A stretch of DNA of 64,000 nt. It comes from a virus. Its lineage: Duplodnaviria > Heunggongvirae > Uroviricota > Caudoviricetes. A program made the position numbers and the translations under genes. The DNA is taken from IMG/VR virus record IMGVR_UViG_3300021400_004456; one strand, written 5' to 3'. The notes beneath the pieces are model-generated. The model ran no database searches. It saw only the letters and a list, made by a program, of their open reading frames with translations, and was not told the origin of the DNA. Numbering within the stretch: the first letter of the stretch is position 1; the number at the start of each line of letters is the position of its first letter. Below are positions 689 through 38,637 of this stretch, in pieces.

Positions 689-1018
689 ATGTTTATTAAA
701 ACACTTTATAATATTTACGAAGTTGAAAATATTACAACAAGTAAAGATGCCTATTACGTTGGTGAAATGGCCGTTATACGTAAAAATCAAGTTATTGCAA
801 AAGCAAAAAAATTAACTGATTTAATAGATGAATTCGCAATTGAGGATAAAATTTTTTCTTGGAGTGAAATAAATAATCCAGTAAGTGCTATTGATTTTTT
901 TAAAGATTGTTCTGAAACTGCTAAATTGTATGGTATTTTAAATATCAACAACAAAAAGAAAAAAATCATAGAATATAATCGCACTTCGCAAACTTGGAAA
1001 TTATTAAAAAAATATTAG
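689..1018 (+). CDS. hypothetical protein
   Basis: 109-aa ORF with a GGAG RBS about 8 nt upstream. A class-A motif lies at 646-658 and a terminator at 602-635 upstream. Confidence 0.5.
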   Translation: MFIKTLYNIYEVENITTSKDAYYVGEMAVIRKNQVIAKAKKLTDLIDEFAIEDKIFSWSEINNPVSAIDFFKDCSETAKLYGILNINNKKKKIIEYNRTSQTWKLLKKY

Positions 1019-1029
1019 GAGGTTTCAAA

Positions 1030-1401
1030 ATGAATAAAGAAATCAAATTACCTGTTTCAAAAGAAACTTTTGTTGAAATTTTTAAACATATCAAAGAAAA
1101 TAGAAAAAAGTATGGTAAATTACAAGAAGCTTTAGAAGATTTATCTCCTGGTAATTATTGTAATTTCTGGCCACATTTTACAGAAGAGAATTTATTTATT
1201 GACTTATTGATAGAGGTTCTTAATTTAAAACCTTCTGTTACAAAAATAGAAGAATATTATGTTAATATAATTGATTATTATATTGAGGAAATAATTGATA
1301 AAAAACCAAATGAAATTAAAGCAGAAGATAAAGAAATATCTACACCTGCTAAATTATATGACTATATCGTAAAGAATTACGACAAAATAAAAAAGGAGTA
1401 A
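1030..1401 (+). CDS. hypothetical protein
   Basis: AGGAGG RBS lies immediately before ATG 1030. The ORF-track start at 994 overlaps the upstream gene and lacks an RBS. Confidence 0.5.
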   Translation: MNKEIKLPVSKETFVEIFKHIKENRKKYGKLQEALEDLSPGNYCNFWPHFTEENLFIDLLIEVLNLKPSVTKIEEYYVNIIDYYIEEIIDKKPNEIKAEDKEISTPAKLYDYIVKNYDKIKKE

Positions 1402-1405
1402 TAAA

Positions 1406-2215
1406 ATGAGTAAAGAAGCTACAAACGCATTAGGAAAAAGAATGAAAGATTATGAAAAAGAGGCAAGAAGTTATTTAGCTTCTAAGACACCTGTTATCAT
1501 TAGAATTGATGGGAAGGCCTTTCATACTTTTACAAGAGATTTAAATAGACCTTATGATGTAACTTTCCACTATTGTATGACTGAAACAGTAAAATACTTA
1601 TGTAAGAATGTTCAAAACTGTAAATTAGGATACACTCAATCTGATGAAATCACTTTAGTTTTATTAGATGATTTAAATGAAAACAGTTCAACATTCTTTG
1701 ATAATCAAATTGAAAAGATTTGTTCAGTAACTGCATCTATGGCAACCCTTGCATTTAATAAGGCTGTTTATGAAAAAGTTCAAGAATTCAAAAATAGATT
1801 ATTCTTATCACCTAATGATAAAGAATTAAAAGAATTACTTGATGTATGGACAAGTAAAATGTTTAAAGCTGAATTTGATGCAAGATGTTTTAATGTTCCA
1901 AATAGAACTGAGGTATTAAATGCTTTGATCAATAGACAACAAGATGCTATTAAAAATAGCATTACAATGTTAGCCTTAGCTCACTTTTCTACAAAAGAAT
2001 TAAATAAAGTTAATAGTTCACAAAAGCTTGAAATGCTATCAAAGAAAAATATTGATTGGAATACTTACTCTACGCATTCTAAAAGTGGAGTAGTAATTTA
2101 TAAAGAATTCTTTGATAAAGAAGGTGCTTTAAGAAGCCGTTGGACGGTCGATGAAAACACACCAATTTTTGCTGAACATCCATCATATATTTTAAATTTT
2201 CTATCTAATAAGTAA
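1406..2215 (+). CDS. Thg1-like protein (tRNA-His guanylyltransferase family, 3'-5' nucleotidyltransferase)
   Basis: The N-terminal region (..VIIRIDGKAFHTFTRDL..PYD..) resembles the Thg1/TLP catalytic core. AAGGAG RBS. A strong terminator lies at 2219-2250. Confidence 0.55.
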   Translation: MSKEATNALGKRMKDYEKEARSYLASKTPVIIRIDGKAFHTFTRDLNRPYDVTFHYCMTETVKYLCKNVQNCKLGYTQSDEITLVLLDDLNENSSTFFDNQIEKICSVTASMATLAFNKAVYEKVQEFKNRLFLSPNDKELKELLDVWTSKMFKAEFDARCFNVPNRTEVLNALINRQQDAIKNSITMLALAHFSTKELNKVNSSQKLEMLSKKNIDWNTYSTHSKSGVVIYKEFFDKEGALRSRWTVDENTPIFAEHPSYILNFLSNK

Positions 2216-2218
2216 AAA

Positions 2219-2250
2219 AGAAACCTGTATTTCACAGGTTTTTTATTTTT
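2219..2250 (+). terminator. Rho-independent terminator
   Basis: Stem aaacctgt/acaggttt (loop atttc) followed by tttttattttt. Confidence 0.7.
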
Positions 2251-2299
2251 AAACATAAAAAAGTTGTTTAATAATATATTTAATGGAGGAAAAATTCAA

Positions 2300-2911
2300 A
2301 TGGAGAAAACAATAAAAACCATAGATAGAAACAAGGAAGAATATATAAACGATTATTATAATTGTCTTACTTATGCTAAAAGAATTACAATATTGCCTTT
2401 TGCCTCTTTAATAAAAATGAGTGCATCAGCAATTCAAAGCTTATATAACCACGTTAGTGGAGTTCGTCAAGCTTTATATTGGACACGTGAAAAAGATCAC
2501 GAATACCATAGATATGACGAAATGGATGATAATAGACGTTATGACGAAACTCTTGGTGAATATGAAGCAGTTCTTGATAATGCATATTTGCTTGTTGCTA
2601 ACAAACTTAAAGGTGCTACTAAGTATAAATCTTTATGGGTAAGAATATCTGAAACTCAAACTAAAAAGATAGCTTATGCTAAAGAACATAGTGTTAGAAA
2701 TTTTAAAGCTAAGTTGGTAGCTTGTCCTAATTGTGAATCAAAAGTTAATAAGAAATTTGTAAAGTATGATAGATGCCCTGTATGTGATAAGGATCTTAGA
2801 TCAAAAACTACAATTAATACTTTAAGAGGTTATGAAAATAAAATAATAGCACTAAAAAATGAAGCTAATATTGAATATCGTAAACTTTATGAACTTAACT
2901 TTAAGAAGTGA
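2300..2911 (+). CDS. zinc-ribbon protein, function unknown
   Basis: C-terminal CPNC..(n)..CPVC pair. GGAGG RBS 9 nt before ATG 2300. The ORF-track start at 2264 is TTG without an RBS. Confidence 0.5.
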   Translation: MEKTIKTIDRNKEEYINDYYNCLTYAKRITILPFASLIKMSASAIQSLYNHVSGVRQALYWTREKDHEYHRYDEMDDNRRYDETLGEYEAVLDNAYLLVANKLKGATKYKSLWVRISETQTKKIAYAKEHSVRNFKAKLVACPNCESKVNKKFVKYDRCPVCDKDLRSKTTINTLRGYENKIIALKNEANIEYRKLYELNFKK

Positions 2912-2929
2912 GCAATGCTCACTTTTTTT
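2908..2929 (+). terminator. Rho-independent terminator
   Basis: Stem gtgagc/gctcac followed by ttttttt. Overlaps the stop codon. Confidence 0.6.
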
Positions 2930-2976
2930 ATTAAACATAAAGAGAATGTCATTAAATTAATATAGGAGGAAAAAAT

Positions 2977-3422
2977 ATGACAAAATATGAGAAAAGAGAA
3001 AATGGAATTTTAGACAATACAGTTCCTAAGATGACAGAAACAACTAAAAAATTTTAAAGGATTTTTTAGAAGACGCTGAAACTTTTTATTTAGCTGTTAA
3101 AACTCCTCGTAAGGATGAGTGGAAAGAATATCACGGTGTTTATAGAGATTGCAGATTAAAAATCGATAGAGATGTTCTTTTATCAGCAGGTATTCACTTC
3201 TATAATTGTCGTGAAACTGATAGTGGCAGTGATTATTTAGGTTCACTTGAAGATTTTGTAGGAGTTAACTTTAGTGGTACTGTTCTATTATTAGAAGAAA
3301 TTGATTATGGAAAGTGGAAAAATTTCCTTCCATTGAACAACGAAAGAATGGTTCAATGGACTTTCAATGATGATGAAACATTTGAAGCATTAAAGGGAAC
3401 AATATTAGAGCTATCTGAATAA
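2977..3422 (+). CDS. hypothetical protein encoded in two frames (26-aa ORF 2977-3057 plus start-less 125-codon ORF 3048-3422); needs a -1 shift at an A6 run or carries a homopolymer error
   Basis: AGGAGG RBS before ATG 2977, with stop at 3055-3057. The -1 frame is open from 3048 to the TAA at 3420-3422 with clean coding character (..LKDFLEDAETFYLAVKTPRKDEWKEYHGVYRDC..), but has no ATG/GTG/TTG for about 95 codons and no RBS. Confidence 0.4.
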
Positions 3423-3446
3423 TTAAATGAAGAGAGGAATGATAAA

Positions 3447-3995
3447 ATGTCTAAGATTAAAGTAAAATGTGTAATGCCTATCTATACCATTGTAGTCAAT
3501 GGTTCTTGTGATAGAGATAGTTTTTCAGAAAATGTAATAACTTTTGCTGGAAATGAAAAGCTTAAAGAAGTTCGTGAAACTTTTTCAAATATCTACAATG
3601 AAAACTTAAAGTATTATGATTTAACTAATACAAGTTTTATTAAAGATTTTAGTGAAACTCCTAACGGATTAAACTATAGTGCTTCTTTTGAAATGTATTA
3701 TGAAGGTTCTTACGATGATAATCACGTTTCTGGAACAGTTAGCACAACGTTTGTTGATGCCGAAATTGAAGTTGATACTAATGATTTAAATTTAAGTGAT
3801 CAATTTTGGTTTAATGAAGCTAAAGTCTATGCAACTAGATATCTAGAGGATAATAAGCTAACATTACCTGTAGAAACAATTAATGAAATTTGTGAAAAGG
3901 TTGCTAAATCAGCTCCTAATAATGAATATTTATGGGATCAAATTGATTTTGCTTTTGGCTCTGATGTTAGAGAGGCTATCGAAAATAAAATTTAA
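3447..3995 (+). CDS. hypothetical protein
   Basis: 182-aa ORF with AGAGAGG RBS. Terminator at 4002-4030. Confidence 0.5.
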   Translation: MSKIKVKCVMPIYTIVVNGSCDRDSFSENVITFAGNEKLKEVRETFSNIYNENLKYYDLTNTSFIKDFSETPNGLNYSASFEMYYEGSYDDNHVSGTVSTTFVDAEIEVDTNDLNLSDQFWFNEAKVYATRYLEDNKLTLPVETINEICEKVAKSAPNNEYLWDQIDFAFGSDVREAIENKI

Positions 3996-4001
3996 TATAC
4001 G

Positions 4002-4030
4002 AAAAGGGATTTATTCCCTTTTTATTTTTT
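4002..4030 (+). terminator. Rho-independent terminator (22-nt core identical to 41541-41563)
   Basis: aaaagggat tta ttccctttt followed by a T-run. Confidence 0.65.
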
Positions 4031-4036
4031 TTTAAT

Positions 4037-4049
4037 AAACACCTAATAT
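4037..4049 (+). promoter_or_regulatory. class-A motif
   Basis: aaacacctaatat, 39 nt before ATG 4088 and directly after the terminator. Confidence 0.5.
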
Positions 4050-4087
4050 ACCTGTCGTAAATAACATAACAAGGAGGACACTAATAA

Positions 4088-5605
4088 ATGTTATATGCAT
4101 TAATTGCAGTCGGAGTCGCTGTGGCTCTTTTACTTATTTTCTTTTTCGCTGGTTATGTTAAAGCTGCTCCAGATGAGGCTTTAATTATTTCTGGTTTTGG
4201 CAAGAGAAAAATTTTAATTGGTAAGGCAGGATTTAGAATTCCGTTCTTACAAAGATTAGACAGACTTTCATTAAAGGTATTCCAAGTAGATATTAAGACA
4301 GATGAAGCAATTCCAACATCTAATTTCATCAATATTAGAGTTGATGGTGTTGCCAATTTAAAGATTTCATCTAACCCAGAATTACTAGGATTAGCAGCAG
4401 AATCTATTCTTAATATGAATGAAAATGAGTTAATCGCTCAAGTTCAGCAAGTATTACAAGGTAATATGCGTGAAATTATCGGTACTGTTGATATTAAGAA
4501 ACTTGTTCAAGATAGACAAGGTGTAGCACAGTCAGTTAAGGAAAACGTAGTTCCTGATATGGCTAAGATGGGTATTGAGGTAGTTAACTTTAATATTCAA
4601 TCATTCTCAGATGATAATCACGTTATTGAAAATCTAGGTATTGATAACATTTCTCAAATTTCAAAGGATGCAGCTATTGCAAAGGCAAATGCTGATAGAG
4701 ATGTAACAATTGCAAAGTCTTTAGCTGAGGAAGCAGCAAACCGTTCAAGAGTAGAAGCAAATCAAAAGATTATTGAACAAAATACTGAACTTTCATTAAA
4801 GGAATCTTCATTAAAGCAAAAGACAGATACTGCAAAGGCAACAGCTGATGCCGCATATGAAATCGAGGAACAAAAGAGAAAGCAAGAAATCAATATTGCT
4901 CAAATCAATGCTGATATTGCTAAGCGTGAACGTGAAGTTGAACTAGGACAAAAGGAAGTTGAACTTCAAGAAAGAAAACTTCAAGCTCAAATCAATAAGC
5001 AAGCTGAAGCTGAAAAGTATGCTACTGAACAAAAAGCACAAGCTGATTTATTCACACGCCAAAAGGCTGCAGAAGCTAGAAAGTATGAATTAGAGCAAGA
5101 AGCCGAAATGCAAAAGATTAGAGCCGAAGCTGATAAAGTTGCTAAAGAAAAAGCAGCAGAAGCTTTAAAAATTGAAGCTTTAGCTAAAAAAGAAGCAGCA
5201 CTTGCGGAAGCTCAAGGTATTGAAGCGAAGGGTAAGGCTGAAGCTGATGCAATCCTAGCTAAAGCAGAAGCTATGAAGCAATATGGTGAGGCTGCAACAT
5301 TGCAATTAATTCTTGATTCTGATGTATTACCAAAGGTTGTTGAGGCATATTCAAAACCAATGGCTGAAGCTTTATCTCATATTGATTCTATCACTATGTA
5401 TGGCGAAGGTAATACTGCTAAGCTTAATGAAGAAATTACTAGAAATGGTACACAAATCTTCTCAGGTCTTGAAAAGGCTACAGGCTTAGATATTAAATCA
5501 TTACTTGCCGGCTATTTAGGCGGAAAATTAATTTCTAAAGATGCTCAACCAGCTGTAATTAATACTGAAACTCCTAAAGTTCCTAAAACTCCTAATAAAA
5601 AGTAA
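4088..5605 (+). CDS. SPFH/band-7 flotillin-like membrane protein
   Basis: N-terminal TM helix, SPFH-like domain, then a long Ala/Glu/Lys-rich coiled coil (EA repeats) as in bacterial flotillins (FloT/YqiK type). AAGGAGG RBS. Confidence 0.75.
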   Translation: MLYALIAVGVAVALLLIFFFAGYVKAAPDEALIISGFGKRKILIGKAGFRIPFLQRLDRLSLKVFQVDIKTDEAIPTSNFINIRVDGVANLKISSNPELLGLAAESILNMNENELIAQVQQVLQGNMREIIGTVDIKKLVQDRQGVAQSVKENVVPDMAKMGIEVVNFNIQSFSDDNHVIENLGIDNISQISKDAAIAKANADRDVTIAKSLAEEAANRSRVEANQKIIEQNTELSLKESSLKQKTDTAKATADAAYEIEEQKRKQEINIAQINADIAKREREVELGQKEVELQERKLQAQINKQAEAEKYATEQKAQADLFTRQKAAEARKYELEQEAEMQKIRAEADKVAKEKAAEALKIEALAKKEAALAEAQGIEAKGKAEADAILAKAEAMKQYGEAATLQLILDSDVLPKVVEAYSKPMAEALSHIDSITMYGEGNTAKLNEEITRNGTQIFSGLEKATGLDIKSLLAGYLGGKLISKDAQPAVINTETPKVPKTPNKK

Positions 5606-5612
5606 TAAAAAT

Positions 5613-5642
5613 AAAGGTTTGGATTAATTCCAAGCCTTTTTT
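5613..5642 (+). terminator. Rho-independent terminator
   Basis: Stem aaaggtttgga/tccaagccttt followed by tttt. Confidence 0.6.
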
Positions 5643-5684
5643 AAAACATAAAAGAAGCATTGAAAAGTTATCGAGGTGATGTAA

Positions 5685-5885
5685 ATGGCTAAATGGCAAT
5701 CTTATAGACAAGATGCAACAAAGAATGGTCGTGTTAAAAAGAAGAAAGTAAAAGAATATTGTGAAGACGAAAAAACGCCGTCGTTATGGTCTAAACTTCC
5801 AATTTGGTCAAAAATCTTAATTGTTTTTGGTGCAACTACTATTATTTGGCTTATTTATTTTTTAATTTTAAATAATAGTTTTTAA
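5685..5885 (+). CDS. small membrane protein
   Basis: 66 aa with basic N-terminus and C-terminal TM helix. GAGGTG RBS. Confidence 0.4.
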   Translation: MAKWQSYRQDATKNGRVKKKKVKEYCEDEKTPSLWSKLPIWSKILIVFGATTIIWLIYFLILNNSF

Positions 5886-5887
5886 TT

Positions 5888-5900
5888 AAACACCTAATAT
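5888..5900 (+). promoter_or_regulatory. class-A motif
   Basis: aaacacctaatat, 20 nt before ATG 5920. Confidence 0.5.
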
Positions 5901-5919
5901 ATTTAAAGAAGGTGACACT

Positions 5920-6390
5920 ATGTTCCGAAAATTAGTTTCATATTGGTTAGGTTTAGGTGCAGTAGTAATTTCAGCTTTAAGTTTAGCTTCTTGCAAAGAA
6001 ACTGAATTAAATACACCAACAAATTTAGTTTATGATAGAGTTGAAAAAGTAAATGATGTAGATGTTCGTATTTACACAAGAGCTTTAAATAATAAACTAG
6101 TTGCAACAGACACTATTGTTCAATGCAATGATGATTTTAAAGAACTATTTTTAAATGATTTTTCTCTTTATAAAGATTATGATTTTCAAAAGAATTCGTT
6201 GTTAATATTTTCATTAGATGAAGTTAATTATACTAATGCTTTAGGACCTCGTGTTACAGCATTGGATGATGGTCATTTACAAATCACTTTTAATAAAGGA
6301 AAATCTTCTAATTATGTTACTTTCGTAGAATTGTATGATTATAAAATAAATAGCTATGATTTTGATATTATTGAAAACGTATTAAATTAA
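5920..6390 (+). CDS. lipoprotein
   Basis: Signal peptide ending in lipobox LASC. AAGGTGA RBS. Confidence 0.55.
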   Translation: MFRKLVSYWLGLGAVVISALSLASCKETELNTPTNLVYDRVEKVNDVDVRIYTRALNNKLVATDTIVQCNDDFKELFLNDFSLYKDYDFQKNSLLIFSLDEVNYTNALGPRVTALDDGHLQITFNKGKSSNYVTFVELYDYKINSYDFDIIENVLN

Positions 6391-6408
6391 AAAAAGAGGT
6401 GTAGTGAA

Positions 6409-6627
6409 ATGTATTTTTTTGAATCTCCAGCTTATTATGCTCCAGCAGGATTAGGGATTGTTACTCAAATTGTCTTTTTAATTTTAAAATTAACAAATGC
6501 AATTAACTGGGCTTGGCCTGTAGTTTTGATTCCTCTTACTGTTCTTGCTTTTTACACTTTTACTTTTATCGTTGCCTTTCCGTTTATATTAGATTTATGT
6601 AGTAATATTTCTGGCGATGATTATTAA
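6409..6627 (+). CDS. small hydrophobic membrane protein
   Basis: 72 aa with two predicted TM helices. AGAGGTG RBS. Confidence 0.4.
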   Translation: MYFFESPAYYAPAGLGIVTQIVFLILKLTNAINWAWPVVLIPLTVLAFYTFTFIVAFPFILDLCSNISGDDY

Positions 6628-6632
6628 TAATT

Positions 6633-6662
6633 AACCTATTTTTATATAGGTTTTTTATTTTT
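6633..6662 (+). terminator. Rho-independent terminator
   Basis: Stem aacctat/ataggtt followed by a T-run. Confidence 0.5.
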
Positions 6663-6683
6663 TAAGATAAAATTTTATCATTT

Positions 6684-6694
6684 TTAAAACATAA
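6684..6694 (+). promoter_or_regulatory. class-B motif TTAAAACATAA (candidate promoter; CATAAT is a -10-like hexamer)
   Basis: 26 nt before nrdG ATG 6720. Confidence 0.5.
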
Positions 6695-6719
6695 TTTATA
6701 ATATAAAAGAGGTGGAATT

Positions 6720-7241
6720 ATGAATTACCATAATATTACAAAAGAAGATATGCTTAATGGTGAAGGACTACGTGTAGTCTTATGGGTTGCAGGATGCGAA
6801 CACAAATGTAAAAAATGTCATAATCCTGAAACTTGGAAATTAGATAGTGGTATTCCTTTTGACGAAGACGCTAAAAAAGAACTTTTTGATGAATTAGAAA
6901 AAGATTATATATCAGGTATTACATTTAGTGGTGGAGATCCATTGCATACTTTTAATAGATTACCAGTGTCAAAGTTAATCGAAGAAATAAAAGAAAAATT
7001 CCCTACAAAAACAATTTGGGTTTATACAGGATATAAATTTGAAGATGTTAAACATCTACCTTTTATAAAAGATATAGACGTTTTATGCGATGGTGAATTT
7101 GAAATTGATAAATATAAGCCTGATATTCCTTGGGTAGGTTCTACAAATCAAAGAGTAATTGATATTAAAAAGACTTTTGAAAATAACGAAATCGTTTTAA
7201 AAGATGATTTTAAGAGCTATATAGAAAGGAAGGATAAGTAA
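6720..7241 (+). CDS. nrdG: anaerobic ribonucleoside-triphosphate reductase activating protein (radical SAM)
   Basis: Cx3Cx2C cluster CEHKCKKC near the N-terminus, plus size and layout typical of NrdG. AGAGGTGG RBS. Confidence 0.75.
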   Translation: MNYHNITKEDMLNGEGLRVVLWVAGCEHKCKKCHNPETWKLDSGIPFDEDAKKELFDELEKDYISGITFSGGDPLHTFNRLPVSKLIEEIKEKFPTKTIWVYTGYKFEDVKHLPFIKDIDVLCDGEFEIDKYKPDIPWVGSTNQRVIDIKKTFENNEIVLKDDFKSYIERKDK

Positions 7242-7242
7242 A

Positions 7243-7560
7243 ATGCAAATTGAATTTAATAAAATTAAACCTGGAATGAAAGTTATGATTTCTCCGAAGG
7301 ATAGTGATGGAGCGATTTTTGTAAGTGTTTTGCAAATGAAGCCTTCTACTCGTTCACTTTCTTGTAAAGATATTTTTGAAGATAAAGTTTATGAAATAAA
7401 AGAAAGTGATCCTTTTGTTTATTATAAAGAGGGAGACCCTTCTTATGAAAAGGTATTCGAAGTTTTTGCTAAATGTTCATATGTAGATAAGAAAATCAAA
7501 GAAGGACTTACTACAAATGAAAAACTAAAAATTTATGAAGCTTTAACAAAGGTGAACTAA
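7243..7560 (+). CDS. hypothetical protein
   Basis: 105-aa ORF with AAGGAAGG RBS, tightly packed after nrdG. Confidence 0.5.
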   Translation: MQIEFNKIKPGMKVMISPKDSDGAIFVSVLQMKPSTRSLSCKDIFEDKVYEIKESDPFVYYKEGDPSYEKVFEVFAKCSYVDKKIKEGLTTNEKLKIYEALTKVN

Positions 7561-7562
7561 TT

Positions 7563-7865
7563 ATGTCAAGGCCTGCTTATAGATTATGGACAAATAAATT
7601 TGAAGATGATTATAAGAATTTAGGTTTTACTGAGGCTGAAACAACCCGTATAATCAATTTTCTTTATGATGTGGATGAAGATTACACCTCAAAGAAAGAA
7701 TACTTAAAATCAGCCAAAGAATATGCTAAAAGCTTAAAAAAAGAAACAGGATTAACTGTAGGAATTGAAACATTATTTGGAATGCCTGTTTCAGATGGTT
7801 ATAGATATTGTTCTAAATGTCAACAATTTTTTTGGGAAGACGAAAATTGTGGATGTGAAGAATAA
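7563..7865 (+). CDS. hypothetical protein with C-terminal Cys cluster
   Basis: 100 aa ending ..CSKCQQFFWEDENCGC. AAGGTGA RBS. Confidence 0.5.
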   Translation: MSRPAYRLWTNKFEDDYKNLGFTEAETTRIINFLYDVDEDYTSKKEYLKSAKEYAKSLKKETGLTVGIETLFGMPVSDGYRYCSKCQQFFWEDENCGCEE

Positions 7866-7940
7866 TTAGAAAACATAATTTTCTTGAAAACTAAAAATAT
7901 ATTTTTAAATATATGATTAATAAAGGAGAAAAGAAAAATT

Positions 7941-8102
7941 ATGAAAAACATTAAAACTAAGCAAAATAAAAAATTGCCAAACCCTATCAATAGACTATTA
8001 ATTGAAAAAAGAGTTCATATGACAATTACTCCAACTAAAAAAGAAAAACAAAAATGTTTAGATAAAATTCAAAAGCAAAAAGGCTATGACCTTTCTTATT
8101 AA
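7941..8102 (+). CDS. small basic protein
   Basis: 53-aa ORF hand-translated (not in the ORF track, which has a 60-aa floor). AAAGGAG RBS. Terminator at 8102-8130. Confidence 0.35.
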   Translation: MKNIKTKQNKKLPNPINRLLIEKRVHMTITPTKKEKQKCLDKIQKQKGYDLSY

Positions 8103-8130
8103 TCCTCCCACAAAGAGGATTTTTATTTTA
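8102..8130 (+). terminator. Rho-independent terminator
   Basis: Stem atcctc/gaggat followed by ttttatttta. Confidence 0.5.
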
Positions 8131-8149
8131 TTATGAAAGGATGATAAAA

Positions 8150-8353
8150 ATGCAACAAATGACACCAACGCCAACTTCAAATAAAAAATTTATTTTATTT
8201 ATTATTTTAAAAGTTTTCTTTTTAGCTTTAATTTCTGTTGCCATTACAATAGGTTTATATTTCTTAATTAAATCCCATTTGCCAACACCTGTTTATCCTG
8301 GCCCAATAATCGATGATCCAGTTCCAGTAATTCCTTATAATTCATTTTTTTAA
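8150..8353 (+). CDS. small membrane protein
   Basis: ATG 8150 has proper GGA spacing; the ORF-track start 8141 abuts the RBS. One TM helix. Confidence 0.4.
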   Translation: MQQMTPTPTSNKKFILFIILKVFFLALISVAITIGLYFLIKSHLPTPVYPGPIIDDPVPVIPYNSFF

Positions 8354-8482
8354 AAAAACATAAGAAAAATGTATCTTATTAAGCTAGAGGGAATTTTAGT
8401 AGTAAATCTTATTGGCTTTAATATTATCATTTAACTTTTTAATCTTTCCTTTCCGTTGAATGATAATATCAAGATAAACAAA

Positions 8483-8516
8483 AGACACTCACTTTTTCTA
8501 TCGAGTGTCTTTTTTA
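8483..8516 (+). terminator. Rho-independent terminator
   Basis: Stem agacactc/gagtgtct followed by ttttt. Confidence 0.55.
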
Positions 8517-8558
8517 GTTTATATAAAACATAATAAAACAGACAGGAGGCCGATAAAA

Positions 8559-10439
8559 ATGCGAAAAAAAACACTATTATTTTCAAGCTTTTTAATACCT
8601 CTTTTTCTTTTGACATCTTGTAATTTTAATGTGTTCGAACAAAATTTTATTACCGAAGAAACTAATGCTTCAAATATTGATATAAATCCACAAACCAACT
8701 TTGAAATAAAATATAGATTTGTTTATAATAATGAAATAATTAACACTTTTGTTCAAGAATTTGAACAAGAAATTGTATTAAAAAAAGCTGATATTCCGTT
8801 TGAACATTTATCTGAACAATATGAAATAGAAGATTGGTATTCTGATCAAGAATTGGCAACTTTATTTTCGGATACAATAGAGATTAAAACGAATTTAGAA
8901 ATTTTCATCAAATTGAATTTGAAACAAAAAGTAGAATGGAGTGTTTTATCTGCTCCAACTACAACATCTTCCGGTTATGTAGCAAAAAAAGAAGGTGCAA
9001 CTATTAAGTCGTACACTTTGCCTAAACTAAATGAAACTGATTATTTTGTATCTAAAGATGCTACGAATTGTAATGCTAGACAAATAATTACTTATAAAAT
9101 ATATATTGAAGGTAATCCTTTTACTTTTACGGCATTAGGAGAACAAAATTCACATTTATTTAATAATTTTGAAATAATAACAATTCCTACCGAAAACACT
9201 TTAGGAAAATATAGAAGATATTGTGCTAATTGTGATTTTTATGAAGATATTAATTTACCTTCTCTTAATAATTCCGATTATTTAGAAACAGAACTAAGTC
9301 AAAAAAGTTGTACAGAAGATGCAATTTCTAATTATACCTACTTAAATAATTTTGGATTAGACTATTATCCTTTATCCTTTAACTATATAAAAGAAAAAGC
9401 CGGTCATACATTAGAAAAGATTTCTGAAAGTGAAGAATATTATTTAAAATCTGATGGAACATTTTTCAAAGAAGCCGTTTATGTGTGTTCAAAGTGTAAT
9501 GAAGTTGTAAAAAAACAAGAAACTTATGTTCCGCCTAAATTATATGACTTACATTTTATATATTCCGATAAAAGAAATGATTCTACTTTTTTAAGTATTC
9601 CTGATAATAGAGAAATAGATTTTTCTAATTATTTAAATATGGAAGAAATTGAAGGAGTTTATATTGATTCGGCTTATACTCAAAAAGTGCCTCAACAAAT
9701 GTATTTAACTAATAATACTACTTTATATGTAAAAATCAGACGAACTTACAGTTCTGACAATCCGTTTGCTCCTACTGAAAATTATATTCCACAAGTTTAT
9801 GATTTTTCAAATCCATCGTTTAACTTTTATAATTTATCTTTAAATACTAAAACGACAGATATTCAAAATCATTATTCTTATTTTTCTTCTACTGGGGATA
9901 CAAATATAACTTCAACGATAGATGTTGAAACAGATAAAATTAAATTGTCTTTTAATACATTTAAAGAAATAGCTAAATCGTCAACTTTCTCTGGTTCTTA
10001 TTCTTCCGTTGATAATAGAACTATGAATGTTAATGGAAAACAATCTGCTAATTTTAAAGATTCTATGACAATAACGGTAAATAATAAATCTAAAATTATT
10101 GATGCAAATTGTCAAATATCTTTTAATGAAAATGCCGTTGGCTATGACACAGAAACAATTTCTTTAGCTTTAAATGGAACCGTTTATTATACTTTTGACT
10201 ATAAAGATAAGGACGACAATTCTTTTGTGGGTTATTTAAATTTAACTTTTACAACTGATGCCAAAACAGGTAAAATTGAAATTAAAGTTTCGGATTTTTC
10301 AATAAAAGCATCAATGTCAAATTTAGATACTTTTAATTGTCATTTAGAAAACAAACTAATTTCTACAACATCATATCAAGTTAATAATATTTTTGAGGAA
10401 GGATATGCTGAAACTTTCCTAAAATTAAATGTTAAATAA
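8559..10439 (+). CDS. large lipoprotein
   Basis: Signal peptide with lipobox LTSC. ACAGGAGG RBS before ATG 8559. The ORF-track 8505 start is upstream of the RBS and terminator. Confidence 0.6.
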   Translation: MRKKTLLFSSFLIPLFLLTSCNFNVFEQNFITEETNASNIDINPQTNFEIKYRFVYNNEIINTFVQEFEQEIVLKKADIPFEHLSEQYEIEDWYSDQELATLFSDTIEIKTNLEIFIKLNLKQKVEWSVLSAPTTTSSGYVAKKEGATIKSYTLPKLNETDYFVSKDATNCNARQIITYKIYIEGNPFTFTALGEQNSHLFNNFEIITIPTENTLGKYRRYCANCDFYEDINLPSLNNSDYLETELSQKSCTEDAISNYTYLNNFGLDYYPLSFNYIKEKAGHTLEKISESEEYYLKSDGTFFKEAVYVCSKCNEVVKKQETYVPPKLYDLHFIYSDKRNDSTFLSIPDNREIDFSNYLNMEEIEGVYIDSAYTQKVPQQMYLTNNTTLYVKIRRTYSSDNPFAPTENYIPQVYDFSNPSFNFYNLSLNTKTTDIQNHYSYFSSTGDTNITSTIDVETDKIKLSFNTFKEIAKSSTFSGSYSSVDNRTMNVNGKQSANFKDSMTITVNNKSKIIDANCQISFNENAVGYDTETISLALNGTVYYTFDYKDKDDNSFVGYLNLTFTTDAKTGKIEIKVSDFSIKASMSNLDTFNCHLENKLISTTSYQVNNIFEEGYAETFLKLNVK

Positions 10440-10453
10440 GGAGGCATTGAAAA

Positions 10454-11455
10454 ATGAAAAAGAAAATTTATAAATTTTTATCATTGCTTTTAGTTTTCAC
10501 TTTCTTTTTTTCTTTAACTTCTTGTTCACTATTTAATTTTGATGAAACTAAATCTGATATTCCATCAACTACTTTTATTAAAAATACAGATCCTGTTATA
10601 GATATTCCGACTACAGAAGATGGTGGATTATCTGAGGAAGAATTACAAATTAAAAAAGAAGAAATGGAGTTAAAACTTCAATATGAAGAACTAGTAGCTC
10701 AAAGAGATGAATTAAAACAACAATTAAAAGCTCTCGAAGAAAAATATCAAGTAAAGGTTTCTGCTATTGATGAATTAAGACAAAAAATTATAGAATTAGA
10801 AAATGAAATAGAAATTAACTTTTCTAATTTTACTTATTTAGAAAACGTTGTTTTAACTTCTTCTCTTTATATTAAGCATACATCTAAAAGAATTGAAAAT
10901 AGAACAACTATCATTTCTACCTCTCAAGGTTCGGGTTCTATTATAAAAGAAGATGGCGAATATTATTATTGCTTAACTAACAATCACGTAATTGCCGACG
11001 AAGTATTAGTTAGTGAAACATCTACCTCTGTTTATGATTTTTATGGCAACGAATATAAAGCTGAAATAATTATGGCATCGCCTTCTTATGATATGGCAAT
11101 TTTAAAAATCCAAAAAAAGCCAAATGTATCTTTAAATGTAATAAAATTTGCTAAAAACAATCCTGTAAAAGATGATATTGTTATTTCTATTGGTAATCCT
11201 TTAGGCTTAATCAATTCTATTCAATATGGTAAAGTTGTTAGATATTCATCAATATCATCAGTGGCTTATGATGTTATTTGCCATAGTGCAATTATAAAAC
11301 AAGGTTCTTCTGGTGGTATGCTTTTAAATAAAAATTTTGAAGTTATAGGTATAAATACTTGGGGACTTTCATCTGAAACTGAAAGCTATGGTGGAGCTTC
11401 CCCTGTTATGCAAATTTATACATTTTTAGATATGGTTGGAATAGAGGTGAACTAA
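10454..11455 (+). CDS. lipoprotein S1-family (trypsin-fold) serine protease with coiled-coil linker
   Basis: Lipobox LTSC. Catalytic motifs TNNHVIADE (His), D, and GSSGGML (Ser). GGAGG RBS. Confidence 0.65.
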   Translation: MKKKIYKFLSLLLVFTFFFSLTSCSLFNFDETKSDIPSTTFIKNTDPVIDIPTTEDGGLSEEELQIKKEEMELKLQYEELVAQRDELKQQLKALEEKYQVKVSAIDELRQKIIELENEIEINFSNFTYLENVVLTSSLYIKHTSKRIENRTTIISTSQGSGSIIKEDGEYYYCLTNNHVIADEVLVSETSTSVYDFYGNEYKAEIIMASPSYDMAILKIQKKPNVSLNVIKFAKNNPVKDDIVISIGNPLGLINSIQYGKVVRYSSISSVAYDVICHSAIIKQGSSGGMLLNKNFEVIGINTWGLSSETESYGGASPVMQIYTFLDMVGIEVN

Positions 11456-11456
11456 T

Positions 11457-12368
11457 ATGAAAAAGAAAATTATTTTTATCTTATCGTTATTTTCATTTAT
11501 TCTACTTTTTATTCCAGGAAAAGTTTATGCTGTAGATGAAACTGATTATAAAACCGATTATAGAGAATATTATCAAGATCAAATTGATATTGTTAGTAAA
11601 GAAATAGATAAACTTGAAAATCAAATTTCAAATTTAGAAAGTGAATTGAAATCACTTGATGCAATTTATCAAGAGCTTTCTCTTTATACTTTTAGCTATA
11701 CAATGGATGATTTAACTAATTGGTTTAATAAATGCAATGATGCTAAAAAATCAGTAGTTTCTATTACTAGGAAAGAATATAATGTTAATTTTGCTTTAAA
11801 AGAAACAACATCTGATTATAATTATTATAGTGGTGCAATTATAAAATATAATTCAAGTAAAAAATATTATTACGTTTTAACTACTTATGATACAACAAAA
11901 GAAAGTGGTTTATATTTTAAAACCGATTATATAATTACAGATGGCTATAACAATGAATATTCAGCTAGTATATATAATTCTAGTTCAAAATATAATTTAG
12001 CAATCTTATATTTTTCTTCTGGCGATAAAATTAGTGAATTAAATACTATAAATTTATCTCAAACTTCTATTCAGGGAAAACAAACAAATGAATTATTATG
12101 TAATCTTTATTACTTAGATGAAACTAAAATGTCTCATTTAAACTTTTCTAAGTTTTTAACTTACAAAACAGATGAAATCTATTCTTATCCTTATTTTGTT
12201 AGTAATATTGATAAAGAAAATGCTTTAGGCTCTATTGTTTTAGACTATTCTGGCCAAATGATAGGAATAACTGTTAAATCTTATTATATAGATGATATTT
12301 GTTATTCTTATAATATGGATGTTTCTAATGTCAATTCTTATTTAAAATCAATCTCATTTGTAATATAA
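11457..12368 (+). CDS. secreted protease-like protein, catalytically inactive paralog of 10454-11455
   Basis: Same architecture (signal peptide, coiled coil, trypsin-like core), but His is replaced (YYVLTTYD) and GxSGG is replaced (DYSGQ). Confidence 0.5.
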   Translation: MKKKIIFILSLFSFILLFIPGKVYAVDETDYKTDYREYYQDQIDIVSKEIDKLENQISNLESELKSLDAIYQELSLYTFSYTMDDLTNWFNKCNDAKKSVVSITRKEYNVNFALKETTSDYNYYSGAIIKYNSSKKYYYVLTTYDTTKESGLYFKTDYIITDGYNNEYSASIYNSSSKYNLAILYFSSGDKISELNTINLSQTSIQGKQTNELLCNLYYLDETKMSHLNFSKFLTYKTDEIYSYPYFVSNIDKENALGSIVLDYSGQMIGITVKSYYIDDICYSYNMDVSNVNSYLKSISFVI

Positions 12369-12421
12369 TTTTTCTAAAACATAATCAAGATTGTTAAAGT
12401 TAATAACTGGAGGAAATTAAT

Positions 12422-12877
12422 ATGGATAAAATTTATGAATTAAAGAAAGATTATGGTTTAAATGAAGAAGAAATTAAGAATTTAACCATTAATGAAAAAA
12501 GAGCCATTATGGAGGTTGAAGACATCTTTGAAAGAGCAACTAACAAAGCTTTTGCAAAGGCACTTTTCAATATTATTCAAGGCGCAGTTCCAGCTTATAG
12601 TCTACAATCAGAAGTATTAAATAGAATTAATTATTCTTATAGTGAAGGTGAAACTTGTACAATTAAAGAGTTAGCTGAATTAGGGGCTAATAATTTATAT
12701 ATAAAAGTTTCTGATGATATAACTCTTAATATTTATGATGAAGATTATAGTGAATTATCAAAATATAATTTAACTCCTGAAACAGAAGTTGTAATTGACG
12801 AAATTCCTGATACTGATGAAGGATTTACTGTTATTTATGCTAATTTAATTGATGGAGATGAGGAGGACGCTGAATAA
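12422..12877 (+). CDS. hypothetical acidic protein
   Basis: 151 aa with acidic C-terminus. GGAGG RBS. Confidence 0.5.
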   Translation: MDKIYELKKDYGLNEEEIKNLTINEKRAIMEVEDIFERATNKAFAKALFNIIQGAVPAYSLQSEVLNRINYSYSEGETCTIKELAELGANNLYIKVSDDITLNIYDEDYSELSKYNLTPETEVVIDEIPDTDEGFTVIYANLIDGDEEDAE

Positions 12878-12878
12878 T

Positions 12879-13052
12879 ATGTTTGAGAATACATTACGAA
12901 ATAAAAAGAAGTCAAATAAATGGGATGAACCTGCATTTGATACTTCTAATATGACACCTGCCGAAAGATTTTTCTGCCCTACTAGATTAGAGTATGAAAT
13001 TGCATCTGAAATGGTCGATGATGATTTAGAAAGAAGTAAAGGAAGCTACTAA
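12879..13052 (+). CDS. small hypothetical protein
   Basis: GAGGAGGA RBS before ATG 12879 (the ORF-track 12849 start overlaps the upstream gene). Terminator hairpin overlaps the stop. Confidence 0.4.
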   Translation: MFENTLRNKKKSNKWDEPAFDTSNMTPAERFFCPTRLEYEIASEMVDDDLERSKGSY

Positions 13053-13066
13053 AAGCTTCCTTTTTT
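13041..13066 (+). terminator. Rho-independent terminator
   Basis: Stem ggaagct/agcttcc followed by tttttt. Confidence 0.6.
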
Positions 13067-13108
13067 GCTATTTATAAAACATAAAATATATAAAAAGGAG
13101 CGTTTAAT

Positions 13109-14107
13109 ATGTGGACTACATTAAAGATAAAATGGGCATTACTTTCTAAAACAATTAAATTTTTTATTTTATTTTTATTGTTTACTATTATTGGCGGAAC
13201 TGTTTTAACGATAGTTTTAGTTAATAATATTAAAACTCCTGAAAAAACTTTAACTCCTGAGGAAAAAATTTCTTACTTTGAAGCGAATAATGAAGCCTTT
13301 ATTCAAACAAATTACAACTTAGAAGAAACTACAATATCTTTTTCTATAAAAAATAATGAAGGCTCTAAATTTCCTTTATTAAAAGGTCGTTATGTAATTT
13401 TTAAAGATGATTCAAATTTAGAAATTGAAGACACTGATTTTTCTTTAATTCCAGCTAATGATTATTTTTTCAAGAGTAGTTATCAAATAGATAACGATAC
13501 ATCTAAATATCAAATAAGATTTATTATTAAATATGAAGAACCTTCTACACTTTACTCTACACTTTGCGCTTATGAATCCCAAAAGTTTTTCATTAAAGAA
13601 CCTGTTGTAGAAAAGGCTAAAGCTCCTGCATTATTAGGAGACTATATGAACAAACTTGGTGATGAAGCTTATGCTACCACTTATTCTTGTTATCAATTAG
13701 AAGATCAAAAATGGCTATTGTTAGTACTTCAATGTAATAGAATTCCTACATTGACGGCTCAATACTATGTAGGTTCTAATGTTGAATGGACTGCTGTTTA
13801 TAATATTACTCAAACTGATGTAACTAACGAAAATGCCTTCCCTAGCGCTGATGATAGTGAAGGACAGCCAACTCCTTATATATGGAAGGGTTTATCTGGA
13901 AGATTAACAAAAGACTCAAAAAAATATACATTAAAAAATGGTGCTAAATTTGAAAATGGCAAATTCATATTAGGTGCAACCACATCTGAATTTGATTTAG
14001 ATTTTAACATTACTTCTAGAGATACTATGAATAATTTTATAAATGCAATTAAAAAAGCATATTATATTTCTTTACAAAACAAAGATATTTATAAAGCTAA
14101 AAATTAA
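13109..14107 (+). CDS. membrane-anchored protein
   Basis: N-terminal TM/signal-anchor. AAAGGAG RBS. Confidence 0.5.
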   Translation: MWTTLKIKWALLSKTIKFFILFLLFTIIGGTVLTIVLVNNIKTPEKTLTPEEKISYFEANNEAFIQTNYNLEETTISFSIKNNEGSKFPLLKGRYVIFKDDSNLEIEDTDFSLIPANDYFFKSSYQIDNDTSKYQIRFIIKYEEPSTLYSTLCAYESQKFFIKEPVVEKAKAPALLGDYMNKLGDEAYATTYSCYQLEDQKWLLLVLQCNRIPTLTAQYYVGSNVEWTAVYNITQTDVTNENAFPSADDSEGQPTPYIWKGLSGRLTKDSKKYTLKNGAKFENGKFILGATTSEFDLDFNITSRDTMNNFINAIKKAYYISLQNKDIYKAKN

Positions 14108-30312: not shown

Positions 30313-31239
30313 ATGGAATTAAATAACAATTTTACTTTAAGCGAACAAGCAGTAATAGGCTTAATGCTTAAATTTAATGAATATAAATATAAAACAATTG
30401 ACAATACACTTTCTAATGTTGTATTAATTAATAAAAAACTTAGAAAGAAACTTACTTTACAACCAGAAATAGACAAGGTTCTTTTATCTGTATATGAAAA
30501 AGAAAACAAAAAAAGCGATTATGAACTTTCTTTTACAAATGAATACAAATGCTTTAAAGATGGTTCGATGAGAATTTTTAATTATAGCTGTTACGAAAGC
30601 GATGAAAAAACTTTAAATTTACAATATTTTTATCCTGAGAATGAGGATTGTCCTAATAAAATCGTTCTTAATTTTTTTGACGAAGATGAAATTTTTAAAG
30701 GCGAATTTGAATATGATGGTTATTTTCCTAAAGTTAAAGAAACTTTAACATTTTCTAAAAGCCAATTATTAAGTTTGATTGAAAAGTTAGAAGACGAAGA
30801 AAGAAAAGAAATTGCTTGCAAAAAGGTTGCAGAAAGCACTTTAAATAGTTTTTTTCTTGAAAACAATATCTATTATGATGATGATAAATTTGGTATAGTA
30901 TTTGAAAGAAAAATTTCAGAATTAAATTTTATTATAGAAGATGCTGTCTTGAATCGTAATATTTTTGATTATATTACAAAGCAAGCTGAATTTGATGTCA
31001 TTGCACGACACTATGAAAAAGAAATAGAGCTTTTTATGCATCTTTATATGCCGATTTTTCTTATAATTGCTAATTATATTTTAGAAACAAATAATACATT
31101 AGAACAGTCTTTAATTAAAAAGAAAATATATCCGGTTGATGCCGTTAACAAAGTTGCTTTCGTTTGTGATTTCTTTAATTTTTCATCTCCTGATTTTCAT
31201 AAAATCTTAGAAATGGTTGCCGATGAACTTGGCCTCTAA
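30313..31239 (+). CDS. hypothetical protein
   Basis: AAGGAG RBS. Class-A motif at 30279-30290. Confidence 0.5.
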   Translation: MELNNNFTLSEQAVIGLMLKFNEYKYKTIDNTLSNVVLINKKLRKKLTLQPEIDKVLLSVYEKENKKSDYELSFTNEYKCFKDGSMRIFNYSCYESDEKTLNLQYFYPENEDCPNKIVLNFFDEDEIFKGEFEYDGYFPKVKETLTFSKSQLLSLIEKLEDEERKEIACKKVAESTLNSFFLENNIYYDDDKFGIVFERKISELNFIIEDAVLNRNIFDYITKQAEFDVIARHYEKEIELFMHLYMPIFLIIANYILETNNTLEQSLIKKKIYPVDAVNKVAFVCDFFNFSSPDFHKILEMVADELGL

Positions 31240-31250
31240 TTTTTGTAGCA

Positions 31251-31287
31251 AATAAAAAAAGACACACTTTGTGTCTTTTATTTTTTA
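31251..31287. terminator. bidirectional Rho-independent terminator between convergent genes
   Basis: Stem agacac/gtgtct is flanked by an A-run on the 5' side and a T-run on the 3' side, serving both the plus gene ending at 31239 and the minus gene ending at 31285. Confidence 0.6.
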
Positions 31288-31698
31288 AATTACTTCATTC
31301 CAATAATTTGAAATCAAATGGAAATCTCGAGGACTATAATTAGGACAATCATAATTGTCATTAATCATAACATTATATAATTCTTTTTTTAATACACGAC
31401 GAATTTTGCGATTACATTTTTGTCTTATCTTTTTATCGTTACAAGAATACCTTTTTAATCTAATAACTTCATCATTACTATTTCTCAATAATCCCTTAGA
31501 AGTTAAAAATAACTTTTCTATATAATCACGTCTGTAAGGCTCTGGTAAATCATAAACTTTAACATCATTGATATACCAATCGTTAATGTTTTTAAGTTTA
31601 ACACCAGTAAGACTTATATCTCTGTGCTTTGTTTTTAAAAATAATTTCTTTAGTTTGATTTTTTCTACGAGTTTAGATTTTTTATTCATTTTCCTCAC
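31285..31698 (-). CDS. hypothetical basic protein (only minus-strand gene in window)
   Basis: 137 aa, Lys/Arg-rich. GAGGTGAGG RBS on the minus strand. It shares a bidirectional terminator with the upstream plus-strand gene. Confidence 0.5.
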   Translation of the reverse strand: MRKMNKKSKLVEKIKLKKLFLKTKHRDISLTGVKLKNINDWYINDVKVYDLPEPYRRDYIEKLFLTSKGLLRNSNDEVIRLKRYSCNDKKIRQKCNRKIRRVLKKELYNVMINDNYDCPNYSPRDFHLISNYWNEVI

Positions 31699-31730
31699 CT
31701 CTTAAATCTTTCTAATCCTCTTATGTTTTC

Positions 31731-31742
31731 TTTAAAACATAA
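31731..31742 (+). promoter_or_regulatory. class-B motif
   Basis: tttaaaacataa, 38 nt before ligA ATG. Confidence 0.5.
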
Positions 31743-31779
31743 CAATTGTTGTATTTCAAATATATAGAAGGAGAAAAAT

Positions 31780-33759: not shown

Positions 33760-33765
33760 AAAATT

Positions 33766-33790
33766 AAAGTCCTTTCGAGGACTTTTTTTG
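33766..33790 (+). terminator. Rho-independent terminator after ligA
   Basis: Stem aaagtcct/aggacttt (loop ttcg) followed by ttttttt. Confidence 0.7.
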
Positions 33791-33801
33791 TTAAAACATA
33801 A
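33791..33801 (+). promoter_or_regulatory. class-B motif opening the ORF-free island
   Basis: ttaaaacataa directly after the ligA terminator. There is no protein gene downstream. Confidence 0.45.
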
Positions 33802-33914
33802 TGGTAGTAGATATTTTCTAATAAAGAGGAAATGTTTAGAGAAAACGTTAGTTTATAAAAACAAAGGTTATTTATTTTAAGAGATTCATAAACGTCTTTA
33901 AATAATGTTAGTTT

Positions 33915-33980
33915 CATCTTTGCTGACGCAGCAAAGATGATCCTGCGTAATGGTCGCAGGATCGAGTGGTTTTTCTCGTA
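33915..33980 (+). ncRNA. structured RNA-like module M1 (hairpin A + GATC-closed hairpin B + GAGT)
   Basis: Stem A is catctttgctg/cagcaaagatg (11 bp). Stem B is gatcctgcg/cgcaggatc (9 bp). These are followed by gagtgg and ttttt. Confidence 0.35.
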
Positions 33981-34067
33981 ATTCAAAAAGAAACTTTAAT
34001 TCTACAATGAATGAAAGCTTATTATTATTAAAAAGTTTGTAGAAGCTTATAATAAGTGTTAATTTAA

Positions 34068-34160
34068 AATTCATTTACGCAGAACGTATAAGCTTCCAGC
34101 TTCTACGAGCTGAGTAAATGAATTTGATCTTATCCTTCAGATAAGATCGAGTTCATTTTC
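34068..34160 (+). ncRNA. structured RNA-like module M2
   Basis: Stem A is aattcattta/taaatgaatt (10 bp, long interior). Stem B is gatcttatc/gataagatc (9 bp). These are followed by gagttc and tttt. The terminator at 34181-34209 follows. Confidence 0.35.
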
Positions 34161-34180
34161 TTTTTGAGTTTTAAAAAATA

Positions 34181-34209
34181 AGATTGCTTAACGGCAATCT
34201 TTTTATTTT
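34181..34209 (+). terminator. Rho-independent terminator inside the ORF-free island
   Basis: Stem agattgc/gcaatct (loop ttaacg) followed by ttttatttt. Confidence 0.6.
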
Positions 34210-34214
34210 GTGTA

Positions 34215-34227
34215 AAACACCTAATAT
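34215..34227 (+). promoter_or_regulatory. class-A motif inside the ORF-free island (no protein gene downstream for about 540 nt)
   Basis: aaacacctaatat directly after terminator 34181-34209. Confidence 0.45.
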
Positions 34228-34399
34228 TATATAGAAAACAAACATTTTGTTTAAAAATATTTGCAAAAATGTAAGGGCTTGATATGAAAAAATAAGTGCG
34301 TAAATGCTTTTATCAAGTGTTAACATTAACCCGATCCTTCAAAGAAGGAGTCGGGTTGATTGACCAACGGTCAATCGATTTCCTTTTGTTTTCTAGAAA

Positions 34400-34432
34400 G
34401 TCATCTTTTATTTTTATAAAGGTGACTTTTTT
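34400..34432 (+). terminator. terminator-like hairpin
   Basis: Stem gtcatcttt/aaaggtgac followed by tttttt. Confidence 0.4.
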
Positions 34433-34579
34433 CTTTTTCAAAAATAAAAAATAAACATAATTAAATTGTTAATTTTTCATTTAGAAAAAAATAACTTGAG
34501 AAAAATTTATAATAGTCAAAATGACAAAAGGCATAAAACATTAAATAGGTTCTTGACTACTTGCTTTATGTGTATAGTC

Positions 34580-34670
34580 CAGATTTCAGTAACATATGAA
34601 ATTTATTTCATAAATTTCATAAGTAACAGAAATCTGATCTTTATCATTCTGATAAAGATCGAGTTACTTT
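34580..34670 (+). ncRNA. structured RNA-like module M3 (candidate sRNA about 34585-34711)
   Basis: TTGACT (34553-58) and TATAGT (34573-78) lie upstream. Stem A is cagatttc/gaaatctg. Stem B is gatctttatc/gataaagatc (10 bp). These are followed by gagtta, and a terminator at 34684-34711. Confidence 0.35.
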
Positions 34671-34683
34671 CTCAAAAACAAAA

Positions 34684-34711
34684 AAGATTATCATATGATA
34701 GTCTTTTTTTT
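34684..34711 (+). terminator. Rho-independent terminator closing candidate sRNA unit M3
   Basis: Near-palindrome agattatca-tatgatagtct followed by T8. Confidence 0.55.
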
Positions 34712-34769
34712 ATGAAAACATAACAAAATTGTTTTAAAATAAATTAAGAGAAAAAATACGGAGGAATTT

Positions 34770-35648: not shown

Positions 35649-35654
35649 AAATGA

Positions 35655-35680: not shown

Positions 35681-35706
35681 TCTAAAAAGAAGTTAAAATG
35701 AACTTT

Positions 35707-38614: not shown

Positions 38615-38637
38615 AATAAAACCAGAGGTAAATATTA

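Follow-up and report, generated by a model that had tools for sequence, protein, structure and literature searches.

One-base indels at A-rich tracts probably disrupt two accessory genes of a sheep-rumen phage-like element

How a reading frame that looks like a gene can exist with no start codon is the question raised by positions 2977-3422 (+ strand) of a 64,000-nt stretch of viral DNA, which is referred to here as the window. An AGGAGG ribosome-binding site (2964-2969, +), read from the sequence, lies 7 nt upstream of ATG 2977, and the frame of this ATG ends after 26 codons at TAA 3055-3057, giving an upstream fragment at 2977-3057 (+) that encodes MTKYEKRENGILDNTVPKMTETTKKF. The -1 frame is closed upstream by TAA 3045-3047 and is then open from 3048 to TAA 3420-3422 (+; 125 codons including the stop), with TTG 3333 as its earliest ATG, GTG or TTG; no SD sequence was found upstream of 3048-3054. 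The two frames meet at an A6 run (3046-3051, +) that is directly followed by T4 (A6T4, 3046-3055). Since TAA 3045-3047 closes the -1 frame and TAA 3055-3057 stops the ATG 2977 frame, any change of frame is confined to 3048-3054. An earlier note on this DNA had described the same ribosome-binding site, start, stop and start-less -1 frame without a ribosome-binding site, all of which were confirmed from the sequence, and had proposed a programmed frameshift, transcriptional slippage or a homopolymer error as the cause.

A stop-free run as long as 3048-3422 is expected ~0.09 times in the six frames of the window (stop probability 0.09 per codon), and this is the sole + strand stretch of at least 100 codons in the window that lacks an early start codon. 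The other start-less stretch that reaches 100 codons lies antisense to gene 57395-57862; it spans 57370-57858 on the minus strand, has 162 stop-free codons with no early start, and resembles a shadow frame rather than a gene. Reassignment of the stop codon at TAA 3055 was rejected, as the readthrough frame meets more stops within ~15 codons and is not the homologous frame of the relatives.

Exact-protein matches show that the window corresponds to positions 42 onward of ENA ERZ1756080 scaffold_1312113 (163,889 bp), a ~164-kb uncultivated phage-like element from sheep rumen. The window has a GC content of 28%, carries nearly all of its genes on one strand, and encodes a replication and recombination module that includes a PolC-type DNA polymerase III alpha subunit, an NAD-dependent ligase, NrdD, a topoisomerase, an ERF recombinase, a RecD2-like helicase, a Thg1-like protein, a Band_7 protein and a radical-SAM protein. 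An ORF of 1389 aa at 49488-53657 had no Pfam or PHROG match at E <= 0.001, and its relatives are 1367-1381 aa long. No tRNAs or Rfam families were found in the window. A DNA search with window positions 2000-5000 found no match among GenBank phages, and pattern and protein scans of IMG/VR found no match and no close catalogued relative of the element. A first-pass protein scan of metagenome contigs also gave no match, and a junction-pattern scan of such contigs returned a single intact allele and nothing else.

Joining the two frames gives a protein of 148 aa; the fusion foreseen in the earlier note was thus borne out, with its size of about 150 aa corrected. The joined protein matches PF18843 (LPD28) over residues 63-135 (30.8 bits versus a gathering cut-off of 27, E = 2.3e-7), and its close relatives also carry a precomputed PF18843 assignment in the protein database. 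Nine close relatives, drawn from sheep-rumen and other JGI, ENA and Logan contigs, are 148-156 aa long and 85-96% identical, and each is one uninterrupted ORF that covers 99-100% of the joined query (intact proteins of 148-156 aa include P0001, P0002 and P0010-P0015). Residues 1-25 of the upstream fragment match the N-terminus of the intact relatives, residues 1-20 are identical to the window in eight of the nine (P0010 has two differences), and PKMTEATKKILKDFLE, the sequence predicted for the joined window product, is present in most of them. The homologues confirm the earlier proposal that 3048-3422 is coding, and the conserved LPD28-like core lies wholly within this downstream fragment (124 codons plus TAA, without a usable start). 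The gene order around the LPD28 gene is the same in the longer contigs, with a 203/221-aa gene upstream and a 182-aa gene and a Band_7 gene downstream, and the flanking genes are common to the window and contigs L014-L018. In L014 (ERZ27256846 k141_3937978), an IS605 OrfB/TnpB-like gene of 417 aa (287-1540) lies ~8 kb upstream of the LPD28 gene; the matching region falls outside the window. An AlphaFold model of P0001 had a pLDDT of 78, with residues 1-20 poorly defined and a first helix (residues 21-32) that crosses the junction. A Foldseek search of this model against the PDB gave no match with E < 0.39 and no function was gained from it, and PHROGs gave no informative match for this gene or for the second gene described below.

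At the DNA level, all seven distinct relative contigs read through site 1 as one continuous ORF, with ACT AAA AAG ATT TTA AAG in six and GAT GAA GAA AAA TTA AAA in the other (L001). The window has ACT AAA AA- ATT TTA AAG, exactly one base fewer than the relatives in the DNA alignment, and the alignments together with the junction census place this 1-nt deletion at the A6 run. The run itself is not conserved, being AAAAAGA or GAAGAAAAA in the known relatives, which are few and all at least 78% identical to the window in DNA. Downstream of site 1, the window-specific changes are three synonymous and one conservative. The earlier note had proposed asking whether a single ORF spans the junction in related genomes; in every relative found it does, and no frameshift is needed. 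Since every relative has one ORF, the break points to a DNA-level one-base indel in this lineage, not to a conserved recoding signal. With intact single-ORF relatives, the same gene order and an indel at the break that is not a multiple of three, the locus shows the pattern expected of a frameshift mutation or pseudogene.

Programmed frameshifting or transcriptional slippage as the cause was not supported, in view of the intact one-ORF relatives and the lack of a conserved slip site or a stimulator. The 0-frame reading ACT AAA AAA TTT yields the heptamer T_AAA_AAA, which has a mismatch at the first position of the P-site, although an A_AAA tetramer is present. No SD-like motif occurs in the 20 nt upstream of the run. 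The fold of 3040-3140 has a free energy of -19.7 kcal/mol (z = -1.73; 12 of 200 shuffles fold as well), no better than shuffled sequence, and the sole nearby hairpin is an A6:U6 pairing that includes the run itself. The two-frame arrangement and its slip site are absent from all nine protein relatives and all seven relative contigs, which, along with the opposite corrections required at the two sites, is the strongest argument against recoding. With E. coli RNA polymerase, rescue is not detectable on runs below T7 or A8, and efficient bacterial slippage needs a run of ~9 (PMC6260861, PMC5009743). The A6 of site 1 is shorter than all of these lengths, and the A8 of the second site is borderline.

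Another way to read site 1 is as two separate genes, with a 26-aa leader peptide followed by a core gene that either has a non-canonical start (e.g., ATT 3051) or is reached by termination-reinitiation at TAA 3055. The distant homologues P0016-P0020 (109-124 aa, 31-55% identity) start near residue 23-26 of the joined protein, so the downstream ORF corresponds to a complete family core, and across nearly all relatives the upstream ORF is invariant over its first 60 nt. Since the distant homologues start there, the ~22 residues before that point form a clade-specific extension, and the lesion lies where this extension borders the conserved core. The two-gene idea still fails, because the core ORF has neither a start codon nor a ribosome-binding site (no SD upstream of 3048-3054, no ATG, GTG or TTG before 3333) and because one base is missing relative to intact relatives, the close ones all being translated straight through as one ORF. 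We regard two genes as extremely improbable; a single missing base separates the window from its close relatives, which shows that the split is derived, not designed. The opening 60 nt of the LPD28 gene (2978-3037) show no differences from L014, L015 and L002 and one from L001, and L002 is only ~78% identical to the window outside this block; the near-invariance could be due to a nucleotide-level constraint or to a recombination block.

The second site, at 39263-39620 (+), is 36 kb from the first and also involves an A run. Behind GGAGAG (39253-39258), the stub ATG AGT AAA AAA AAT AAT TTG TGA (39263-39286, +) has 7 codons and a stop, so the product of ATG 39263 is MSKKNNL, ending at TGA 39284-39286. 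Its A8 run is at 39269-39276 (+), one position beyond the 39268-39275 given in the earlier note, which was otherwise accurate as to the run, ATG 39263 and the 27 open codons before ATG 39348. The remainder of the gene occupies 39267-39620 (+); the frame of 39348-39620 opens at 39267 and runs for 27 codons before it reaches ATG 39348. Because this frame is +1 relative to ATG 39263, the loss of one A would be needed to restore it, which is the opposite of site 1. The joined product is 118 aa; relatives of 117-120 aa, among them the intact proteins P0003, P0004 and P0006, begin with MSKKIICDIDYAGG, or more generally with M(S/I)KKIICDIDYAGG. The DNA of all six distinct relative contigs read at this site is ATG A(G/T)T AAAAAAA TAATT, an in-frame A7, and the window has A8, which identifies the run as the site of a 1-nt insertion; between strains, the tract is thus A7 or A8. 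The flanking genes are common to the window and L006-L011.

The second gene carries a further lesion. At an A6 run (39600-39605, +), the window has a third 1-nt deletion relative to all relatives, which have ACTAAAGAAACT or GAAAAAAAC at this locus. Through this deletion the C-terminal residues become KKLKRS instead of KKTKKELK, and the stop shifts from a TAATG that overlaps the next gene to TGA 39618-39620. Among canonical start codons, just ATG 39348 (90 aa) remains; it arose by a window-specific Leu29-to-Met change (relatives have TTA or TTG) and has no SD upstream at proper spacing. This change could be coincidental, or an adaptation secondary to the frameshift. The 90-aa truncated form is on record from four contigs, and its sources include Logan. 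Window-specific substitutions in codons 1-29 are three non-synonymous and one synonymous, and those in codons 30-119 are one non-synonymous and three synonymous, which is a weak hint, from sequence comparison, that the orphaned N-terminus may no longer be constrained.

The earlier note had taken two A-run sites to mean either a recoding habit of the element or systematic homopolymer errors in the assembly. A recoding habit is contradicted by the opposite shifts at the two sites, the non-conserved run, the lack of a stimulatory element and the finding that no other gene of the window is interrupted. Other overlapping or abutting ORF pairs in the window have an ordinary internal ATG with a ribosome-binding site at normal gene junctions; candidate broken pairs 689/994, 13109/14043, 14753/14910, 22762/22844, 57906/58493 and 59413/59930 were rejected on the grounds of such an ordinary internal ATG and ribosome-binding site. 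ORF 34466-34723 (TTG start) lies in a stretch with many indels and without a called gene in relatives.

If the assembly were in error, the true genome would be in frame and the consensus would have miscounted the tracts. Homopolymer indels are a classic consensus error, three of the coding indels of the window sit at A runs, and the downstream ORFs are intact with mostly synonymous changes. With PCR-free Illumina sequencing, the homopolymer indel rate at 6-8 nt is low. We compared indels over 31.8 kb of alignment (window 1009-13444 and 30735-49628 versus relatives 93-96% identical; 84%, or ~27 kb, coding). There were 69 indels, 48 of them of one base, and 39 of these 48 fell in the intergenic 16%. 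Of the nine genic one-base indels, two are the lesions, two lie 11 nt apart in the divergent 3' part of gene 2 and compensate each other, and the remaining five are no more than 20 nt from the end of a gene, so that the two lesions are the sole uncompensated gene-body frameshifts in the aligned 31.8 kb. In-gene indels longer than 1 nt are of 3, 6 or 9 nt, except for a 2-nt indel at the start codon of 39625. Such a pattern is what real variation under selection leaves in a clean assembly. Moreover, the window has 191 runs of A6 or longer and 81 of T6 or longer (272 in total), which are otherwise consistently called and leave all other genes intact.

Two different assemblies also agree at site 1. 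Logan contig SRR873599_211537, an independent assembly, is 100% identical to the window over 4,031 nt including the A6 junction, so that the ENA scaffold and the Logan contig share this A6, although the two may share reads. The Logan contig derives from run SRR873599, a low-methane sheep-rumen metagenome sequenced from an unamplified (PCR-free) library on an Illumina HiSeq 2000 (2x150; PMC4158751), for which matched metatranscriptomes are available (SRR873450-SRR873457). Compared with the nearest sequences, site 1 is also most simply explained by a G lost between A's, not by a miscounted homopolymer. A systematic homopolymer error is thus very unlikely in our judgment, given the same A6 in the Logan assembly and the absence of other frame-breaking indels from ~27 kb of coding sequence. 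A genuine mutation, which was not among the three options of the earlier note, fits best.

Other gene loss was observed in the window. At 38333-38337, ~327 nt are absent that hold most of a 138-aa acetyltransferase gene; the gene is present, between an 88-aa gene and an HMA-domain gene, in all six relatives that cover the locus, and a degraded 3' remnant with three 1-nt gaps extends to ~38410 in the window. At ~34425-34432, L006 and L009 have ~890 extra nt; the two genes therein, of 94 aa and 150 aa, are absent from the window, and the region around this insertion point (33759-34770) is mostly non-coding with many small indels. At 43788-43793, the window has A6 and three relatives have A5; this indel precedes the PolC start (43808) by 15-20 nt, falls in its GGAGG region, and alters the last codons of the upstream gene, which is 253 aa in the window and 258 aa in the relatives, where it overlaps polC by 20 nt.

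It is also conceivable that the lesions are real and yet compensated, a useful full-length protein being made by RNA polymerase slippage on A6 and A8 or by a -1 slip of tRNA-Lys on A_AAA, with tract length acting as a dimmer or as an on/off switch in the population. Both lesions do lie in A runs, a shift at site 1 is permitted nowhere but in the run itself (3048-3054), and the frames downstream show no signs of decay. Documented precedents for such rescue are long poly(A) tracts in endosymbionts and herpesvirus TK (PMC5009743), and a phage-type (T7-type) single-subunit RNA polymerase slips on runs as short as A3 (PMC6260861). Against this, rescue by the E. coli enzyme is undetectable at the length of site 1, and unstimulated -1 slippery motifs in E. 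coli reach only 2-10 times a background of 0.055% (PMC4066793), with no stimulator here. The arrangement is absent from every relative, and the second gene would require two separate corrections. A Pfam scan of the 20 larger window proteins found no RNA polymerase domain; ~100 kb of the full contig lie beyond the window, and if an unseen phage-type RNA polymerase transcribes the genes, rescue could be substantial. Compensation is unlikely overall, and distinctly unlikely is the stronger form in which the A-tract indels are reversible switches or dimmers, slippage on short A runs giving a trickle of full-length protein and tract length toggling between strains. Low-level adventitious rescue may occur.

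Taken together, these results suggest that both sites are probably genuine, lineage-specific one-base indels at A-rich tracts, by which two accessory genes have been inactivated or truncated. The comparisons directly show the indels, the intact orthologues, the gene order in common and the lack of a conserved slip site. Replication errors in a genome of 28% GC would have produced both indels. At site 1, an ancestral ACT AAA AAG ATT would have lost one base; loss of the G is the simplest history, and alternatively the G may first have become A, with the resulting A7 then shrinking to A6. The deletion would part the 25-residue clade-specific N-terminal extension from the LPD28-like core, so that standard decoding should now give only the 26-aa peptide, and because the core ORF has no start codon or ribosome-binding site it would be essentially unexpressed. 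At site 2, the in-frame A7 would have become A8, cutting a 119-aa gene after 5 native codons; at best, translation may begin at the new ATG 39348 and give a protein of 90 aa that lacks the N-terminus and ends in a tail altered by the 39600-39605 deletion. In addition to its two frame-breaking lesions, the second gene has three amino-acid changes, specific to the window, within the 29 orphaned codons at its start. Both genes are presumably inactivated, and since the downstream frames are still free of stops, we infer that the events are recent. Perfectly intact downstream frames fit a very recent lesion, and they fit an error or a compensated lesion equally.

The outcome is mainly a negative one: an ORF that has no start codon and follows an A run, in a phage-like contig rich in AT, is here a plain, probably recent frameshift mutation and no new recoding signal. 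For annotation, 2977-3422 and 39263-39620 should be labelled as disrupted genes, and two such sites indicate neither a recoding habit nor a poor assembly.

Several known systems resemble these loci in part. The joined protein scores above the gathering threshold of Pfam PF18843 (LPD28) over residues 63-135; unlike PF18843 as a module of polyvalent proteins, it is a small stand-alone protein with a ~22-aa clade-specific N-terminal extension. Site 1 shares with the programmed -1 frameshifting of dnaX and IS elements (A_AAA_AAG plus stimulators) a Lys-codon A run at the junction and a 0-frame stop two codons downstream, but its heptamer is imperfect (T_AAA_AAA), SD-like and structural stimulators are absent, all relatives are in frame, and the stub made without a shift is 26 aa long and has no evident role. 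With the transcriptional slippage of Thermus dnaX, Shigella mxiE/spa13, IS elements and endosymbiont poly(A) rescue, the sites share a homopolymeric A tract at the junction. However, those cases have runs of ~9 or more or a nascent-RNA hairpin, whereas the A6 and A8 here lack such a context, the arrangement is not conserved, and opposite corrections would be needed at the two sites. From the homopolymer-indel pseudogenes of AT-rich genomes nothing material differs: common to both are a one-base change in an A-rich run, intact syntenic orthologues, small accessory genes and other gene loss in the lineage, and the lesions described here look young, their downstream frames being free of secondary stops.
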